From the IMG/VR virus record IMGVR_UViG_3300026274_000001: DNA of 64,000 nucleotides; one strand, written 5' to 3'. This DNA comes from a virus (taxonomy: Duplodnaviria > Caudoviricetes). Below, in pieces: positions 9,771 to 40,968 of the stretch. The notes below the pieces were generated by a model that was given only the letters and a program-made list of their open reading frames with translations, ran no database searches and had not been told where the DNA came from. The stretch's first letter is position 1; every line of letters starts with the position of its first letter. The translations under genes and the position numbers were made by a program.

Positions 9771-9941
9771 ATGACGCAAGCATTAGCAGCAACTTTTTTC
9801 GATGAAATCTCCGGCGAATTGATGGTTGATGTGCCACAAGAGATCATGGACGAAGTGGGTATCACACCTGGTGATGTGATTGTTTGGAACATCGACGAAG
9901 ACGGTCGAGTTACTATTACGAAAAAGACCGAAGAAGAATAA
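9771..9941 (+). CDS. AbrB/MazE/SpoVT-like swapped-hairpin protein, 56 aa (below track cutoff)
   Basis: GELMVDVPQEIMDEVGITPGDVIVWNIDEDGRVTITK matches the AbrB pattern. Confidence 0.65.
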   Translation: MTQALAATFFDEISGELMVDVPQEIMDEVGITPGDVIVWNIDEDGRVTITKKTEEE

Positions 9942-15226: not shown

Positions 15227-15937
15227 ATGAAAACTAACGCATTTTTATATAAATGGACACAGCTTACCACTGGAAAATGGTATATAGGTTCAAGAACTAG
15301 AAAGGGTTGCCACCCAAATGATGGTTACTTGTGTTCTAGTAAAACAGTAAAACCGTTGATTGTATCCCATCCTGAAGAATGGAAAAGAGATATTCTGGTT
15401 GTTGGAAATCCGATTTATATTAGAGAAATAGAAACGACTTATTTGGTTAAGTTTGATGCGGCCAAGGATACTAATAGTTTTAATTTATCCAATTCTCATG
15501 GCAAATATTCTTTTACTGGACAAACTCATTCTGAAAAAACGAAATTAGCTATAAGTTTAGGTAATAAAGGAATAAAACGACCTGGTAGCGGTAATCGAAC
15601 CTCTAATAGAGGAAGTAGCGAAAATAGAGGAAATAAAAAATGTCACAAAGGCAAAAATAATCCTTGCTACGGTCGCACGGGCAAACTAAATCCGATGTTT
15701 AATAAAAAACATCCACCAGAAATGAAAAAGGTGCTATCCGATATCAAAATGGGTGGCAAGAATCCAAATTCTAAACGAGTACTAACACCCTTTGGCCATT
15801 ATGACACTCTGAAAGAAGCAGCACTTGCTTACAAAGTTTCGTCAAACACAATTAAGTATTGGATTACTACTAGTAGACTTGGATTCAGTTTTATAAATTT
15901 AGAAAAGAATAAAGAAGAACAGAGAAATGACAGATAA
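15227..15937 (+). CDS. Free-standing GIY-YIG homing endonuclease (Seg-like)
   Basis: FLYKW...WYIGSR, YLCSS; NUMOD3-like HSEKTKLAIS/GKNNP/NPMF repeats; C-terminal HTH. Confidence 0.85.
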   Translation: MKTNAFLYKWTQLTTGKWYIGSRTRKGCHPNDGYLCSSKTVKPLIVSHPEEWKRDILVVGNPIYIREIETTYLVKFDAAKDTNSFNLSNSHGKYSFTGQTHSEKTKLAISLGNKGIKRPGSGNRTSNRGSSENRGNKKCHKGKNNPCYGRTGKLNPMFNKKHPPEMKKVLSDIKMGGKNPNSKRVLTPFGHYDTLKEAALAYKVSSNTIKYWITTSRLGFSFINLEKNKEEQRNDR

Positions 15938-16697
15938 TACCAAGAAAACAGGTATGACAATTACAGTATCCGATGAATTGGTTGCTGACCTGAAGACCCT
16001 GCATGGCATTGATGCCGTTACCGAAATTGTTAATTCGGTAACATCAGAGCTTGAATTGGAATTAGAACAACCAAAAGAACCAGAACGTCGTGTGTTTTCT
16101 ATCGATGTTGGTAATATGACTCCTGAACAAGCCAAGGAAGCAATCACCGCAATTCAAAACAAATATGCCGCGCTTGATAGTGCATATAACCCCATGACTA
16201 TGGGCGAAGACTACTTTTTTGCACCTGCGCCAAAGAAGAAGTTTATGTCTACTAAGACATTTAATACTGATCGCGGATTGAGCTGCTGTTTCCGTCAATG
16301 GCGTGCCACCCATTCACATTGCTCAACACTGCACGGCTATTCAATCGGTGTGAAGTTTGTATTTGAATGTGAAGAACTGGACGAACGCAACTGGGTATTC
16401 GACTTTGGTGGTCTGAAGGATATTAAGAAATGGCTTGAGCATATGTTTGACCATACATGCTGTGTTGCAGAAGACGATCCATTGTTGGAACAATTTAAGG
16501 CATTTGCAGCAACTGGCGTTATGGACTTGCGGATTGTCCCAGGTGTAGGCTGTGAACGTTTTGCCGAAATGATTTTTGATCATGTCACTAAGGTGTTAGA
16601 TGATTCCCGCGATACTATGTTGAACAAGACTGCACGACTTAAGTCAGTCGAAGTCTTCGAACATGGTGCTAATTCGGCGATCGTTGAACGCGACTAA
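15927..16697 (+). CDS. queD: QueD (6-carboxy-tetrahydropterin synthase) with N-terminal capsid- and portal-like extension
   Basis: aa ~104-256: STKTF..RGLSCCFRQWRATHSHCSTLHGY, DFGGLK, FDH, GCERFAE, VFEHGANSA; aa 1-103 see findings. Confidence 0.85.
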   Translation: MTDNTKKTGMTITVSDELVADLKTLHGIDAVTEIVNSVTSELELELEQPKEPERRVFSIDVGNMTPEQAKEAITAIQNKYAALDSAYNPMTMGEDYFFAPAPKKKFMSTKTFNTDRGLSCCFRQWRATHSHCSTLHGYSIGVKFVFECEELDERNWVFDFGGLKDIKKWLEHMFDHTCCVAEDDPLLEQFKAFAATGVMDLRIVPGVGCERFAEMIFDHVTKVLDDSRDTMLNKTARLKSVEVFEHGANSAIVERD

Positions 16698-35729: not shown

Positions 35730-35746
35730 ACAAATCGAGCCTAAAT

Positions 35747-35780
35747 AAAAGAGCTGAATATTTAGTTATTCAGCTCTTTT
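35747..35780 (+). terminator. Intrinsic terminator
   Basis: AAAAGAGCTGAATA...TATTCAGCTCTTTT. Confidence 0.7.
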
Positions 35781-35843
35781 ACATTTTGCGTATTAAACGG
35801 GATACGACTATAATAAAGAAATTACCGTTGGATAATAAAAATA

Positions 35844-37352
35844 ATGATAAAACACCCGAAAGGATATGCCGCGTTTACTCCGAGCATATCCCAGATGTAT
35901 GTATTGGCGCATGCTAAAGAATGGCCCCGTCAACCCCTACCTTTTGGTCCCTTGGATTTCCTAGATCCGAAAAATGCCGATCTCTTTCACCATCAGTTTG
36001 CTCTTTATTCTGCTGGCCACGCTTATTTGGATCCAGCAAAAAGCGATGAGAAAGAACCTATGGTGCAATTGCGCGACCGTTCAAAGACCGTAATGGTCGG
36101 TGATTCGGGTGGGTTCCAGGCAGCAACTGGCGTTCTAGACTTTGATTGGAAAAATCCACTCGGTGAGAAAGCAAATGAGCAGCGTCTCGCATTGATGAAT
36201 TGGCTTGAGCATACAGCTGATTACAGTATGATTCTAGACTGGCCAGCATGGGCGATTACTGCTGGTAAGGCACTATTGCCTGAACAATTATTCCACTTTG
36301 ACCCCTCGACTGGTGAACCAAGTCAAGACGTGTTCAGGAACTGTCTGAATGGTACAGTATGGAATAATGAATTCTTCATGAAGCATAGAACACCAGGTAA
36401 GACAAAGTTCCTGAATGTTTTGCAAGGTCGCAGCATTGAGGAAACTAATATTTGGTTTGATGCTGTTACACCATTCAGTGACACCAAGAAGTACGGCGAT
36501 CGCGCATTCGAGGGCTGGGCACTTGGAGGTTCAACGGGAGGCGATCCAGCGGTCACCATGCGTCTGCTGATTAAGTTGCGGGATAAGGGACTACTTGACG
36601 GTGACGATCGCTGGATTCACGTCCTAGGGCGTTCACGTCTTACAACTGCTGCTTACTTGACTTCAGTCAATCGCGCACTGACGGAATTTGTCAATCCAAA
36701 TATTCAAGTAAGTTATGATGCAGCCAGTGCATTTTTGTATGCAGTGAATGGCAATTATGTTGTAGATTGGCAAGTCAATGATAAGAGCTTGAATCTTATC
36801 AGTACTGAATTCCCAATGCATGAGAAATATATTGGTAGCGATACTCCATTCATCTATAACGGCGTGAAGTCAGATCGATTGCATTCAGCAGAACACTATA
36901 AGAGTCCAATCAGCAAGCAATTGAAGATGGGTGATTTTATTCTTCAAGCAGAACCTGATGCAAAGAAGAAATATCGTATGGATACTGCCAGCTATTTTTA
37001 CATCATGGCGCACAATGTTCAAATGCAAATTGCCGCTATCAATGATGTATCGGAAAAGATGGCTAGTCCTGATGCAGCAAATCACGTACCGACAATCTTT
37101 ATTGAATTTGATGAATTTGTACGTGAGTTGTTTGTGACCGAAAAGCCATTCGAATTAATTGATAAGCATGCAAATAAATTCAGTAACTTGATTTCTGGTG
37201 AGCGTCCTGGCGTTAGCGCAATGGAAGACCCTATTTTGTTCCCTAAAGAACTAAAGACCATGGAAGAGATTGAAGATCGAGTTCGACGCAAGAAACCAGT
37301 TAAGGTAGTTCCAAAGAAGATGGAAAGTTTGTTGAGTAACATTCTCAAGTAA
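35844..37352 (+). CDS. TGT/DpdA-fold guanine transglycosylase-like protein
   Basis: GDSGGFQ, LDWP, NVLQG, GWALGG, WIHVLG, SYDAAS, AHN; no CxCxxC zinc motif. Confidence 0.8.
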   Translation: MIKHPKGYAAFTPSISQMYVLAHAKEWPRQPLPFGPLDFLDPKNADLFHHQFALYSAGHAYLDPAKSDEKEPMVQLRDRSKTVMVGDSGGFQAATGVLDFDWKNPLGEKANEQRLALMNWLEHTADYSMILDWPAWAITAGKALLPEQLFHFDPSTGEPSQDVFRNCLNGTVWNNEFFMKHRTPGKTKFLNVLQGRSIEETNIWFDAVTPFSDTKKYGDRAFEGWALGGSTGGDPAVTMRLLIKLRDKGLLDGDDRWIHVLGRSRLTTAAYLTSVNRALTEFVNPNIQVSYDAASAFLYAVNGNYVVDWQVNDKSLNLISTEFPMHEKYIGSDTPFIYNGVKSDRLHSAEHYKSPISKQLKMGDFILQAEPDAKKKYRMDTASYFYIMAHNVQMQIAAINDVSEKMASPDAANHVPTIFIEFDEFVRELFVTEKPFELIDKHANKFSNLISGERPGVSAMEDPILFPKELKTMEEIEDRVRRKKPVKVVPKKMESLLSNILK

Positions 37353-37684
37353 TGTTCAAATTCAACATTACGAGCAAGGAGACAAACTACGGTGAATTAT
37401 CGTCGTGGTTTGCCGCCAGAGACGCCAAATATGAATTTGCTTTTATTGATGTCAATGATTGGATGCATCATAAAAGCTATCAGCTTTATGATATTGCCAT
37501 TTATGATGAGCATGTGGCAGTTGAATTTAGGCTCACGTTTGGTGCTAATGTGGGCGAATCTCACAGACATCGAGCACTTGATTTGGAAGCCGAAATGACT
37601 GCTGCACTTTCAGTTGACCTTGCTAACGCAATTGATGAAGAAATTTATCAAGAATTACTGGCTGCTTGTGCAAAGAAACAGTAA
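37352..37684 (+). CDS. FKLxW-family protein with C-terminal capsid-like helix
   Basis: DEHVAVEFRLTF followed by LDLEAEMTAALSVDLANAIDEEIYQEL. Confidence 0.8.
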   Translation: MFKFNITSKETNYGELSSWFAARDAKYEFAFIDVNDWMHHKSYQLYDIAIYDEHVAVEFRLTFGANVGESHRHRALDLEAEMTAALSVDLANAIDEEIYQELLAACAKKQ

Positions 37685-37929
37685 TGGCTGAATTTTTTAT
37701 TGCCAAAGCCAATTACGACAATACCGCCATTGTTACTTGGTTGGAAGAGCAAGGATGTTCCCACTATGCTCTATTGTTGGAAGCGACCTGGGCAACGGAG
37801 AGTACAGTTTACGGCTTTAATTCATACAGCTTGAGATCGGGGGTGGTGGTCGGTATTTACGACCCCACGATAGCGATGATGTTCAAGCTGAGATTTGATG
37901 CCAAAGAAAGAGCATCATTAAACAATTAA
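37684..37929 (+). CDS. FKLxW-family protein
   Basis: TWLEEQG...DPTIAMMFKLRF. Confidence 0.8.
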   Translation: MAEFFIAKANYDNTAIVTWLEEQGCSHYALLLEATWATESTVYGFNSYSLRSGVVVGIYDPTIAMMFKLRFDAKERASLNN

Positions 37930-38207
37930 TGTGGCCAACACATATGATTTCTTTCTACTCCATCCCAGGTAGTAGATATGACGAATTTGGTATGTTTGCT
38001 TGGTTAAATGCAAACTGCGATAAGAAAGATTGGCAATGTTATGGCATGCAATTGCTTGGCATCTATCCGCAAGCTAGTGTGAACATACCCATTCATGCTT
38101 GGACTTTACACGATGACGATGTGGCATTGATGTTCAAGATCGTATTCAGTGCACTTCTGCATACCACACCTGAATCCATTCACGATGCATATGTGAATCA
38201 TTACTGA
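37929..38207 (+). CDS. FKLxW-family protein
   Basis: AWLNANC...DDDVALMFKIVF. Confidence 0.8.
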   Translation: MWPTHMISFYSIPGSRYDEFGMFAWLNANCDKKDWQCYGMQLLGIYPQASVNIPIHAWTLHDDDVALMFKIVFSALLHTTPESIHDAYVNHY

Positions 38208-38208
38208 T

Positions 38209-38487
38209 ATGAATAAATTTTACTGTATGGCGCGTGGCCAATCTCAAGTACTTGAGGACTGGTTGATTGACAATGGCACTGGTTATGATTGGAGTATTCA
38301 TCAAACTATGATATCGAATATTGTTGATGATTCTGACATTCCAAACAACTTTGCGAATGTGTATATGATAGCCGACGATCAATTTGCTATGATGTTCAAG
38401 ATCATGTTTGCTGATGTAGTGTATGACACTCCTAAAGCATTTGGTGACTTCATTGTGCAAAAACGGCTATTAATGAATATTGTATGA
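38209..38487 (+). CDS. FKLxW-family protein
   Basis: DWLIDNG...DDQFAMMFKIMF. Confidence 0.8.
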   Translation: MNKFYCMARGQSQVLEDWLIDNGTGYDWSIHQTMISNIVDDSDIPNNFANVYMIADDQFAMMFKIMFADVVYDTPKAFGDFIVQKRLLMNIV

Positions 38488-38729
38488 ACCGCGTAAACGT
38501 TTATACCCCTTTGACTGATGGTAAAGAACTTGCGATTGATCAATGGATGGCTGAGCGTCAATGTGTCAATTATATAATCACGTCCAAATTCGCTGGGTGG
38601 CATGGCTCGCGTACTGGAGTAATACTTGAATTATGGGTAGTAATGCCACCAGAACATGTGTTGGATTTCCTACTGACATTTGAATCTAGGTTGGCAACAC
38701 CAAAACGTCGTGATTTAGAAATTCTTTGA
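38484..38729 (+). CDS. FKLxW-family protein
   Basis: QWMAER...EHVLDFLLTF. Confidence 0.7.
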   Translation: MNRVNVYTPLTDGKELAIDQWMAERQCVNYIITSKFAGWHGSRTGVILELWVVMPPEHVLDFLLTFESRLATPKRRDLEIL

Positions 38730-38793
38730 CTATCAGTTAACAAATAGATTTTTGACCAATATCACTTATAATACGAACAACTAAGGAAAAGAA

Positions 38794-39057
38794 ATGGCAT
38801 TTATGTACAAAGGTGCACCAGGACAACAACAACATGTCAAACCTGGTGTTGAAATTCAAGCATTCGAATTGCACAAGCGCTACACTGAACTAGGGTGGCA
38901 AATCTTGGACAGTTCGTATTCAGCTGCTCGTCGAATCATGACTTTCTCGTTTGAAGGGAAAGAATTGGTACACATCACTGATGAAGACCAGAACAGTTTT
39001 ACCATGTTTACCTGGCCGGGTTGGTATCTCGTCGGCGCACCACACGCAACCAAGTAA
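38794..39057 (+). CDS. Hypothetical protein
   Basis: AAGGA RBS and own promoter-like site; no family motif. Confidence 0.65.
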   Translation: MAFMYKGAPGQQQHVKPGVEIQAFELHKRYTELGWQILDSSYSAARRIMTFSFEGKELVHITDEDQNSFTMFTWPGWYLVGAPHATK

Positions 39058-39061
39058 AGCT

Positions 39062-39328
39062 ATGGCTCCTTGGGAAGAAGGGCTGTATGTCATGCGACTG
39101 GATGCTGGTGAGACTCGCAACAGTAGGGCTCTGCATGCCTCTGTGGATCGGTGGTTTACTGATAATGAGGTGAATCAATGGTTTTTAACGGTAGTATCAA
39201 AACCCACTGATGCACCAAACTATTCACGCCATCGAGCATACGAATTGGAAGTATCAGTTTATTATGAAGAAGAAGCACTGAAATTTATGTTAGCCTTTGG
39301 TGCCAAATTACATAGGACGCCCCTGTGA
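39062..39328 (+). CDS. FKLxW-family protein
   Basis: RWFTDNEV...EEEALKFMLAF. Confidence 0.75.
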   Translation: MAPWEEGLYVMRLDAGETRNSRALHASVDRWFTDNEVNQWFLTVVSKPTDAPNYSRHRAYELEVSVYYEEEALKFMLAFGAKLHRTPL

Positions 39329-39585
39329 CCTCGTTCTTCACTCTCGATTTCAAGTTTGGTAAATTTGATAATGAATTTCAAGATAAGCTAACTGAGATTC
39401 GTGAATGGTTTGTAACCAGTAATATGCCCGAAACCATTTGGGGATATTCCACAGTACAGCATCCGGGTACTTTTTATATTCACTTACAAATTATAGTTGA
39501 TGCCGAACTTGCTGCTTTGCAGTTCAAGCTTGCTTGGGCTGATTATATATTACCAGATTTCATGAGAACTTCCAGTGATGCATAA
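39325..39585 (+). CDS. FKLxW-family protein
   Basis: EWFVTSN...ELAALQFKLAW. Confidence 0.85.
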   Translation: MTSFFTLDFKFGKFDNEFQDKLTEIREWFVTSNMPETIWGYSTVQHPGTFYIHLQIIVDAELAALQFKLAWADYILPDFMRTSSDA

Positions 39586-39808
39586 ATTCAGAATGCGACT
39601 TGATCCGGTCTATGATCAAGACTATGTTACTCGTAACGATCAAATCACCACTTGGTTTCGAGAGCGGAATGTGACTATTGATCAATGGCGTGGTGGAATG
39701 ATCGTTGATCCCAAGACATTCGCAGTAGTAATGACGGTCTTTATCAACGATGACTTACTGGCAATGCAATTCAAGCTTACTTGGTCTGAAGACCTAATTA
39801 CTGATTGA
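39575..39808 (+). CDS. FKLxW-family protein
   Basis: TWFRERN...DDLLAMQFKLTW. Confidence 0.85.
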   Translation: MMHKFRMRLDPVYDQDYVTRNDQITTWFRERNVTIDQWRGGMIVDPKTFAVVMTVFINDDLLAMQFKLTWSEDLITD

Positions 39809-40104
39809 TGCTACCTGCTGATATGACCGTGCTGTATTCACATAGGTTAATACGTCGACTTATGATAGTTGATTGGCTACTTGAACATGCTGATACAAAA
39901 TCGTGGGATTGGAACTCGGTCGCACTTATTGATGTCTATCCAGACAGTGTGCTCGAATCACGGATGATTTACGTTTGGTGTATTGACGACAATAATATTG
40001 CTATGCAAGTGAAACTTATCTTCAGCGACGAATTGTTCTCCCAACCAAAAAGTGTTCATGATCAACTAGTCAGTATCCGCAGAGCCGCTGGATTCCCTTG
40101 GTAA
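39805..40104 (+). CDS. FKLxW-family protein
   Basis: DWLLEHA...DNNIAMQVKLIF; paralog of 37929..38207. Confidence 0.8.
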   Translation: MMLPADMTVLYSHRLIRRLMIVDWLLEHADTKSWDWNSVALIDVYPDSVLESRMIYVWCIDDNNIAMQVKLIFSDELFSQPKSVHDQLVSIRRAAGFPW

Positions 40105-40108
40105 CATA

Positions 40109-40348
40109 ATGTCAAGTAAGTTCTATTTTGAACTAGAACACCAAGATTCTGGTTACCACGTAGTTACCGAAGTAAAAGATTGGATACTCGAACAGGTATG
40201 GGCTAAGTGGTATAGATGCGAACATCAATACAAATGCTATGATGGTTATTTGAGTTATTGGCAAAGCGTCGTATTATACGATGTAACACTGGCCGTACAT
40301 TTCAAATTGCGGTGGTCTGATAGCATAATTAAAGAATTTCATTCTTGA
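40109..40348 (+). CDS. FKLxW-family protein
   Basis: DWILEQV...DVTLAVHFKLRW. Confidence 0.85.
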   Translation: MSSKFYFELEHQDSGYHVVTEVKDWILEQVWAKWYRCEHQYKCYDGYLSYWQSVVLYDVTLAVHFKLRWSDSIIKEFHS

Positions 40349-40449: not shown

Positions 40450-40968
40450 ATGGATCGCACACAACCAGTTCGTTTCTTCAAGGGTCTCGAAATTGAAGCA
40501 ACGAATCATTTTTTACAACCAACAATGATTGCACCTGGTCAATACGACTATGATGAATGCAAGCAAATGACACTTGATCATAAGTGTACCCACATCCTCA
40601 TCGGTTTTATGTACGACCCTGCTGGCAATCCACTCGATATGGATATTCCACGCGCATTCGAAACTGCAAACAAGCTTATGGCTGACGGTATCCGCGTTAC
40701 ACTGGAAATCCGCCCAGACCAACTGACTGACGAATTTGTGGCTGCTTGCCCAGATCCAGAAGGTGCATTTGGTAAGCTGTTCGTTATCCTTATTGGTACG
40801 CGCTTTCCAAACATGCCAAAGATTGGACCATACACAACACTGAAGCTCCACAGCGATTTCGACAACACAGAAAACGGTGGCGTTTGGTGTGTTAAGGCTG
40901 AAGAATTCAAGAAGGCTGGAATTTTTACTCCCTGGATTGCCTATCAAGAAGATATTCACCTAAAGTGA
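40450..40968 (+). CDS. Conserved phage hypothetical protein (family I recall next to TGT-like genes)
   Basis: VRFFKGLEIE...THILIG...DF.NT.N.GVWC...FTPWIAYQED. Confidence 0.7.
   Translation: MDRTQPVRFFKGLEIEATNHFLQPTMIAPGQYDYDECKQMTLDHKCTHILIGFMYDPAGNPLDMDIPRAFETANKLMADGIRVTLEIRPDQLTDEFVAACPDPEGAFGKLFVILIGTRFPNMPKIGPYTTLKLHSDFDNTENGGVWCVKAEEFKKAGIFTPWIAYQEDIHLK

Follow-up and report, generated by a model that had tools for sequence, protein, structure and literature searches.

What is a fragment of a capsid protein doing at the end of a small protein encoded beside an enzyme gene? The question arises in the 64,000-nucleotide stretch of DNA from IMG/VR virus record IMGVR_UViG_3300026274_000001 that was analysed here (the window). 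An initial annotation had proposed that a 110-amino acid protein encoded directly after a gene similar to tRNA-guanine transglycosylase (TGT) and DpdA genes is a member of a family of small proteins, the FKLxW family, onto which a helix of the gp23-type major capsid protein (MCP) has been grafted. The source of the window is a jumbo phage from soil, uncultured and of gp23/T4-like type, and the window codes, among other things, for topoisomerase II subunits, ClpX, IMPDH, a CCA-adding enzyme and a class II aminoacyl-tRNA synthetase. A megablast search with the region found no match among 50,697 phage records (2.3 Gb of DNA, which also served as the database for tblastn below), and thus no close relative among them. 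Related IMG/VR genomes were reached by way of the TGT-like gene; these are G001 (424 kb), G002 (290 kb) and G003 (524 kb), and their MCPs were retrieved from them.

We first consider the capsid likeness of the C-terminal tail. Bases 37577–37657 read exactly as the initial annotation had quoted them and are codons 76–102 of the open reading frame, directly after the family motif. When the whole protein was used as a tblastn query, the best E-value belonged to the MCP of Xanthomonas phage XacN1 (17 of 32 residues identical, 53%; E 0.03) and the next matches were the MCPs of Xoo-sp13, RAS14 and CM1; all of these alignments cover query residues 69–104 and the same region of the MCP, and the matched MCPs are full Gp23-family members according to Pfam. 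The 40-residue tail alone matched one of 24,736 Pfam families, PF07068 Gp23, at positions 167–197 of its 376 model positions (E 0.048, 13.5 bits). This score lies below the curated cut-off of 24.4 bits, as is expected because the tail is only a 30-residue piece, and the tail is a fragment of the family and not a whole-model member of it. The 1,121 stop-to-stop frames of the window were then all scanned with a profile hidden Markov model (HMM) made from five MCPs, which gave the 110-residue protein 22.5 bits (E 2.9e-6) and placed a QueD fusion protein, to which we return below, second at E 0.87; a third weak match, in the open reading frame at 9771–9941 (E 1.2), was judged to be due to chance. 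Finally, an alignment of 12 orthologues (the window protein and 11 from databases, 33–98% identical) was compared with the MCP alignment by hhalign, which returned a probability of 95.7% and an E-value of 1.1e-8 over 51 columns.

Might an acidic amphipathic helix look like this by chance, or be a functionless scar of neutral recombination? The segment is short, its single-sequence statistics (Pfam and tblastn, above) are modest, and a pairwise BLASTP comparison of the protein with T4 gp23 was empty; what the tail resembles is therefore the jumbo-phage branch and the profile of the family, not T4 in particular. However, the real 33-residue core scored 23.1 bits, compared with maxima of 7.2 bits among 5,000 free shuffles and 12.7 bits among 5,000 shuffles that kept the hydrophobic/polar pattern, so that none of the 10,000 reached the real score, and the comparison with shuffled amphipathic acidic helices on which the initial annotation had staked its idea came out in favor of that idea. 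Together with the profile–profile E-value, the fact that this is the lone strong match in the 1,121 frames, and the conservation described below of the 12 orthologues (dN/dS, the ratio of nonsynonymous to synonymous substitution rates, 0.35), this makes chance a very improbable explanation. The tail is a genuine fragment of a gp23-type capsid protein, as had been claimed. It is homologous to PF07068 proteins over about 30–50 residues and has the same invariant E-x-E ... I-D positions; its closest MCPs are those of jumbo phages such as XacN1, and the lineage's own MCP is about 47% identical. It corresponds approximately to residues 195–225 of the G003 MCP and 283–310 of T4 gp23 (T4 residue numbering was checked on the T4 record). 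Unlike an MCP, the tail amounts to about 8% of the fold, lacks the A domain, the P-domain sheet, the E-loop and the N-arm, and is the C-terminus of an unrelated domain.

The remainder of the protein belongs elsewhere. The FKLxW family, which has dozens of paralogues and an undescribed fold in this lineage, has about 40 detectable members in the window alone, and ordinary members stop some 5–25 residues past the family motif, D-x3-A-x2-F-[KR]-L-x-[FW]. The N-terminal 64 residues of the 110-residue protein share the profile of tail-less paralogues (hhalign 94.7%, E 5.7e-8) and the motif, of which D52, A56, F59, R60, L61 and F63 do not vary among the orthologues, and so this protein is a family member. 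In an AlphaFold2 (AF2) model (mean confidence score pLDDT 79) the domain has the order beta-alpha-beta-beta-alpha and is followed by a disordered linker, the length of which differs between orthologues, and by a long helix at residues 75–109; the motif stretch, residues 57–63, lies inside the second helix of the model. Foldseek found nothing significant in the PDB for this model and no HK97 match, with a weak ferredoxin-like/ACT/PII resemblance, and the whole protein had no Pfam match at E<=0.1, nor did Pfam and PHROGs searches with the protein and its neighbors give any. The exact 110-residue protein is present on 19 metagenome contigs.

A profile built from 16 tail-less FKLxW proteins gave an hhalign probability of 0.06% against the MCP profile. 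The tail-less family thus has no MCP similarity, and the tail is therefore a graft, which bears out the proposal that an MCP segment was joined to an FKLxW protein. We also considered whether the whole FKLxW family might derive from an MCP strand plus helix; this was rejected on the same 0.06% value and on the helical motif of the model. In the MCP, the stretch aligned with the family motif is, to judge from the HK97 fold, presumably a strand. Because the AF2 model has this motif as a helix, the homology most likely begins in the linker, and the 110-residue protein is most likely a fusion of two unrelated parts.

How old is the fusion, and is it maintained? The tail is retained in 12 of 12 orthologues, down to 33% identity, and all of them align to the same region of the MCP HMM, 11 of the 12 at E<0.01. 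Mean pairwise identity among them is 40% in the helix and 44% in the domain, and dN/dS between the window protein and its 83%-identical orthologue in L060 is 0.35 in the helix and 0.30 in the domain (the same comparison with L061 was discarded, as an indel disrupts the ungapped codon pairing). Tail residues E79, E81, I94 and D95, which are invariant or nearly so, match the invariant MCP columns E199, E201, I214 and D215. At about 47% identity to the MCP of the lineage, the tail is by its sequence not a recent duplication, and selection holds the very residues that are invariant in capsid proteins. The C-terminal 30 or so residues are an old, in-frame captured copy of the acidic short helix of the P domain plus the spine helix.

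The gene upstream was said in the initial annotation to be TGT/DpdA-like. Pfam, PDB sequence and PDB profile searches with its product gave no match. In contrast, an AF2 model (pLDDT 62; TM-scores 0.35–0.5) had 101 Foldseek matches at E<=1e-3, and the top matches listed are all tRNA-guanine transglycosylases; feature matching in the Atlas gave TGT 0.93 and DpdA 0.88, and the protein has a DSGGFQ motif. The name is thus supported at the level of the fold only, and with it the position of the tailed protein directly after such a gene. The final base of the TAA that ends the TGT-like gene is at once the first base of the ATG that starts the tailed gene (TAATG). This overlap was found in seven loci (the window, L060, L061, L062, L065, L066 and L067) and is kept even where the small proteins share just one third of their residues. 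In no locus examined is the tailed subfamily found apart from the TGT-like gene, and its translation is coupled to that of the enzyme. G003 has a further family member between the TGT-like gene and the helix-tailed orthologue; of the 32 family members in that genome only the two beside the TGT-like gene have long C-terminal tails, and both tails are MCP pieces.

The second of these two G003 tails is a different part of the MCP, the P-loop strand, and further pieces were found when G001–G003 were searched with the Gp23 and Portal_T4 models, a search that also recovered the genuine MCP and portal genes. The MCP gene of G003 lies at L013:1039-2259, immediately downstream of a gene for a putative scaffold protein (L013:3-1019). 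The N-arm segment of the MCP (Gp23 positions 4–48, up to 41 bits, above the cut-off) forms the N-terminus of proteins of 148–176 residues in all three genomes, and the one in G001 ends in an FKLxW-type motif. Besides the G003 orthologue of the 110-residue protein, the helix piece occurs in the middle of a G001 protein that is also 110 residues long and has no family domain (L022:1387-1719, Gp23 positions 168–202, E 0.003), which is encoded far from the TGT-like gene. In a scan within the G003 genome, MCP and portal were the only identifiable genes that gave short-fragment matches.

The QueD fusion of the window carries two such pieces in front of its PTPS domain. Its N-terminus, tested alone, matches Gp23 positions 153–187 (E 0.001), and the adjoining stretch matches Portal_T4 positions 204–274 (E 4e-8, above the cut-off), corresponds to T4 gp20 residues 278–336 and gives E 3e-5 in BLASTP against T4 gp20. 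In the relatives (L057, L058 and L059) these extensions are modular: the G002 QueD has the MCP-like piece only, that of G001 a short portal-like piece only, and those of G003 and the window have both. The QueD fusion resembles the 110-residue protein in its MCP helix piece, and QueD too belongs to the 7-deazaguanine pathway; its piece differs in being N-terminal, in being shifted 14 model positions toward the preceding strand and loop, and in being joined to a portal piece. The initial annotation had taken the QueD piece for the first half of the helix and the tail for its continuation, which does not hold, since the two overlap by 21 Gp23 model positions (153–187 and 167–197). Each appears nearer to the MCP than to the other, judged by eye and with no dedicated alignment, which fits separate captures. 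A GIY-YIG/NUMOD3-type homing-endonuclease-like gene (window 15227–15937) adjoins the QueD fusion.

Thus the suggestion that these segments form a reusable module is supported by the non-MCP carriers in G001–G003, where their absence would have spoken against it, and by the MCP and portal pieces of QueD. The suggested link to 7-deazaguanine genes fares less evenly: it is upheld by the tailed subfamily, which is always coupled to the TGT-like gene, but the Gol-like N-terminal carriers (that is, those with the N-arm segment) and the L022 carrier were not seen beside such genes. Coordinates are collected in Table 1.

Table 1. Location of the tailed gene, its parts, its neighbors and the other carriers of capsid or portal pieces. 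Positions without a prefix refer to the window.
Feature	Position	Strand	Basis or remark
Terminator-like hairpin (35746-35781), then sigma-70-like promoter	35746..35814	+	Upstream of TGT-like gene
TGT/DpdA-like gene, 502 aa (amino acids)	35844..37352	+	AF2 fold, Foldseek, Atlas feature matches
Helix-tailed FKLxW-family gene, 110 aa	37352..37684, stop included	+	Open reading frame list
N-terminal family domain, aa 1-64	37352..37543	+	hhalign vs tail-less paralogues; AF2 model
Linker, aa 65-74, predicted disordered	37544..37573	+	AF2 pLDDT <50 at aa 69-76
MCP-derived helix, aa 75-105	37574..37666	+	tblastn, Pfam, HMM, shuffles, hhalign, AF2
Nine tail-less FKLxW paralogues after the tailed gene	37684..40348	+	
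MCP-like piece of QueD fusion, aa 13-47 (gene 15927-16697)	15963..16067	+	Pfam Gp23 positions 153-187
Portal (gp20)-like piece of QueD fusion, aa 52-112	16080..16262	+	Pfam Portal_T4, BLASTP
N-arm-segment carrier, G002	L018:1483-2013		
N-arm-segment carrier, G001	L019:1489-1935		
N-arm-segment carrier, G003	L020:1483-1977		
P-loop-strand carrier, G003; family member directly after TGT-like gene	L011:7595-7933		YYAPYV region, Gp23 model positions 301-326

Other observations concern G003. Three proteins of 267–346 residues that have no Pfam match or other identification (302731–303660, 327297–328100 and 331455–332495; L040 and L041) each have a stretch of 20–60 residues in common with two or three small proteins encoded at other places in G003 and may be further cases of fragment reuse. 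Adjacent paralogues of 191 and 244 residues (L021, G003:298332-301499) resemble the MCP at Gp23 model positions 219–272 (E 1e-4) and may be diverged A-domain-like proteins, and one of three tandem paralogues of 223–278 residues (L056, G003:244963-248109) has a weak Portal_T4 match at positions 264–315 (E 0.01).

The tight and conserved coupling to the TGT-like gene raises the possibility that the fragment was captured once and is now a generic helix which oligomerizes or binds the enzyme, so that its MCP likeness would be mere history. The last 50 residues of the TGT-like protein form a basic stretch of predicted disorder and the tail is acidic, which would suit such binding, and T4 itself supplies a precedent for the partial duplication of a virion-protein gene in alt.-1 and alt.-2, which its annotation describes as an ancient copy of the beginning of alt. 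On the other side, capsid and portal pieces were captured repeatedly, by different carriers and at different termini; the MCP-invariant residues have been kept, without drift, at 33% identity; and the TGT-like C-termini of G001 and G002 are equally basic without a tailed partner. A complex prediction for the TGT-like protein with the 110-residue protein scored 0.00 and was counted neither for nor against. We regard this explanation as unlikely.

The block around the tailed gene has some further features. A 172-residue protein (40450–40968), which has no family match and for which every score in an Atlas look-up was below 0.9, closes the block of TGT-like and FKLxW genes in most relatives examined; the run of FKLxW genes between it and the TGT-like gene numbers nine or ten in the window and as few as two in G001, and the 172-residue protein may be the real partner of the enzyme, displaced by the FKLxW array. 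In the close relative L060 a NUMOD3 gene (L060:1760-2491) is inserted just upstream of the TGT-like gene and has displaced the conserved promoter region. The cultured jumbo phages PA5oct (L068) and Phosso (L069) have a homologous TGT-like gene in the replication module, flanked by a virion structural protein gene (confirmed by mass spectrometry or annotated) and a primase-like gene; at this locus they lack the small helix-tailed partner.

Which parts of the capsid protein have been reused? The conserved acidic positions of the tail match D285, D287 and E289 of T4 gp23. The changes D285V and D287V/N alter the length of the T4 head, and D285 and D287 adjoin a short P-domain helix of negative charge, through which a capsomer makes charge contacts, near the quasi-threefold axis, with a basic P-domain strand of its neighbor (PMC9546572). 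Substitutions that bypass the need for gp31 lie at G292, V306 and V307, in the spine helix, and at A455, in the YVAL strand, and the head-length positions T457, R460 and G461 are in the adjoining P loop at the quasi-threefold axes (PMC9546572). The P-loop-strand piece of G003 covers the T4 region of A455, T457, R460 and G461. The N-arm piece of the relatives aligns with T4 gp23 residues 94–122, in our reading the Gol region. Gol comprises 29 residues within the first quarter of gp23 and is the most conserved part of that protein; it binds EF-Tu and triggers the Lit protease (PMC3014915), and the N-terminus of gp23 sends fusion proteins to GroEL (PMC3012670). The tail of the 110-residue protein is not a Gol homologue, as it aligns with T4 residues 283–310 or thereabouts and not with 94–122. 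The reused pieces are the elements of the MCP that are most involved in contact between capsomers, in folding dependence and in contact with host factors.

We propose mimicry as the way in which the tail acts: being an amphipathic acidic helix on a tether, it would bind whatever the same element of the unassembled MCP binds. In the AF2 model the helix is predicted to have no partner surface in its own protein and to be free on its disordered linker. Taken as a whole, mimicry seems to us as easy to accept as to doubt. In the version that we prefer, the tail would dock onto the MCP or proheads at the basic P-domain sheet, on the edge of the capsomer or the quasi-threefold contact, and the small partner of a DNA-modifying enzyme would so be tied to capsid material; the same would go for the QueD fusion and for the second tagged G003 protein. 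Docking of this kind has a structural rationale in the T4 sites above and would explain why two MCP contact elements stand side by side in G003. It is our first choice among the forms that mimicry might take, but a tentative one, which on its own we think more apt to be wrong than right.

A number of points weigh against mimicry by docking. The most conserved MCP segments are also the easiest to detect, so that the overlap with T4 hot spots may partly reflect conservation, and our MCP comparisons rest on the MCPs of relatives and not on the window phage's own. In the MCP the hydrophobic face of the helix is buried against its own P domain, and a free copy may therefore present another surface. 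In G001 and G002 it is tail-less family members that follow the TGT-like gene, and the enzyme therefore does not require the tail; this absence of the tail and the probable early promoter described below weigh against an obligatory capsid-linked role. Finally, if expression is early, a host-directed role fits at least as well as capsid docking.

One such role would be the engagement of host factors. The MCP pieces would here be the parts by which the capsid protein meets the machinery of folding or translation, GroEL with a phage co-chaperonin and EF-Tu, and the tags would steer their carriers to this machinery or would compete for it. The GroEL-directing N-terminus of T4 gp23 (PMC3012670) and the EF-Tu-binding Gol region (PMC3014915) speak for this, gp31-bypass sites fall in both of the segments grafted next to the TGT-like gene (PMC9546572), and genes for HSP20, ClpS and ClpX, which act in proteostasis, share the same conserved block. 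The bypass mutations, however, mark residues that make folding dependent on the chaperonin and not a chaperonin-binding site, and no co-chaperonin or chaperonin gene was identified in this analysis. We think this explanation quite improbable.

The timing of expression bears on a second host-directed role. The promoter-like site upstream of the TGT-like gene consists of TTGCGT (35786–35791), a 17-nucleotide spacer and TATAAT (35809–35814), and the same layout of hairpin and TTGC-17-TATAAT precedes TGT-like orthologues in 8 of 10 loci, with an extended -10 in two of them. The T4-type late promoter TATAAATA occurs once in the 64 kb, compared with 3.1 sites expected by chance, and not near the operon. 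As read from these motifs, the promoter suggests transcription by host RNA polymerase that is probably early and precedes that of the capsid protein. A tag made early could act as an immune decoy, occupying sensors of capsid or portal without triggering them and so blunting abortive infection, as the initial annotation had suggested among its possibilities. The two reused proteins are prime targets of such sensors: Avs7, Avs8 and Avs10 sense the MCP and Avs4 and Avs11 the portal (PMC13581612), and Lit and CapRel read short MCP motifs (PMC13581612, PMC3014915). In the same direction point the N-terminal copies in relatives of the MCP segment that aligns with T4 residues 94–122, and the conflict-type genes cREC_REC, AAA_28 and Phage_ABA_S in the neighborhood. 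The described Avs sensors, however, wrap the whole HK97 fold and not one helix (PMC13581612). One would expect a Gol-like peptide to switch a Lit-type protease on rather than to block it, and a decoy leaves the strict translational coupling to the TGT-like gene unexplained. We also know of no defense system that reads the spine helix, and on balance hold a decoy to be distinctly unlikely.

Mimicry, the reading that we favor, could extend beyond the 110-residue protein. The lineage may keep a toolkit of capsid and portal peptides (N-arm/Gol, acidic/spine helix, P-loop strand and portal) as mimic tags on non-structural proteins, particularly on the 7-deazaguanine DNA-modification enzymes and their small partner, and these tags would either dock on contact sites of the capsid or prohead or pre-empt the host sensors or factors that read those motifs. 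Such a toolkit is possible, if doubtful, and would be a manner of reusing structural epitopes that has not so far been described in a virus.

In a search of the literature on jumbo-phage capsid-fragment fusions or decoys, we found no description of MCP or portal peptides on non-structural proteins. The nearest known concepts are portable gp23 signals, capsid-targeting peptides and mimicry-based anti-defense proteins. Gol and the GroEL-directing N-terminus show that short gp23 segments act when they are moved (PMC3014915, PMC3012670), but both come from the first quarter of gp23, whereas the tail is from about residues 283–310, and in T4 they are laboratory fusions or a defense trigger and not natural tags on other proteins, whereas relatives of the window phage carry natural fusions of the presumed Gol-region homologue. 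Like the T4 capsid-targeting sequence (CTS; PMC3012670) and encapsulin cargo peptides, the tail would, as a short terminal peptide on a flexible tether, bring a cargo to an HK97-fold shell. The CTS is N-terminal, has about 10 residues, binds the scaffold core and is cleaved by the prohead protease (PMC3012670). The tail, at the C-terminus and about 30 residues long, is not a T4-type CTS; it derives from the shell protein itself and has no known sequence likeness to the CTS or to encapsulin cargo peptides. Encapsulin cargo-loading peptides, which bind the inner face of the shell protein, are C-terminal, as the tail is, and this position and the predicted disordered linker fit a comparison with them.

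What these findings mean for phage biology depends on what the tags bind. Bacterial immune sensors recognize no parts of a virus more often than its capsid and portal proteins, and the contact elements of these proteins control the geometry of the capsid; a virus that copies those elements onto early non-structural proteins has so far not been described. If the tags act as decoys, a new class of anti-defense device would be at hand, one aimed at the sensors of the core phage proteome. If they dock enzymes on proheads, DNA hypermodification would be linked to capsid assembly or packaging, and the tail would be a natural cargo tag for T4-like capsids. In either case the conserved two-gene unit, a TGT-like enzyme and its helix-tailed partner, offers a small testable system.

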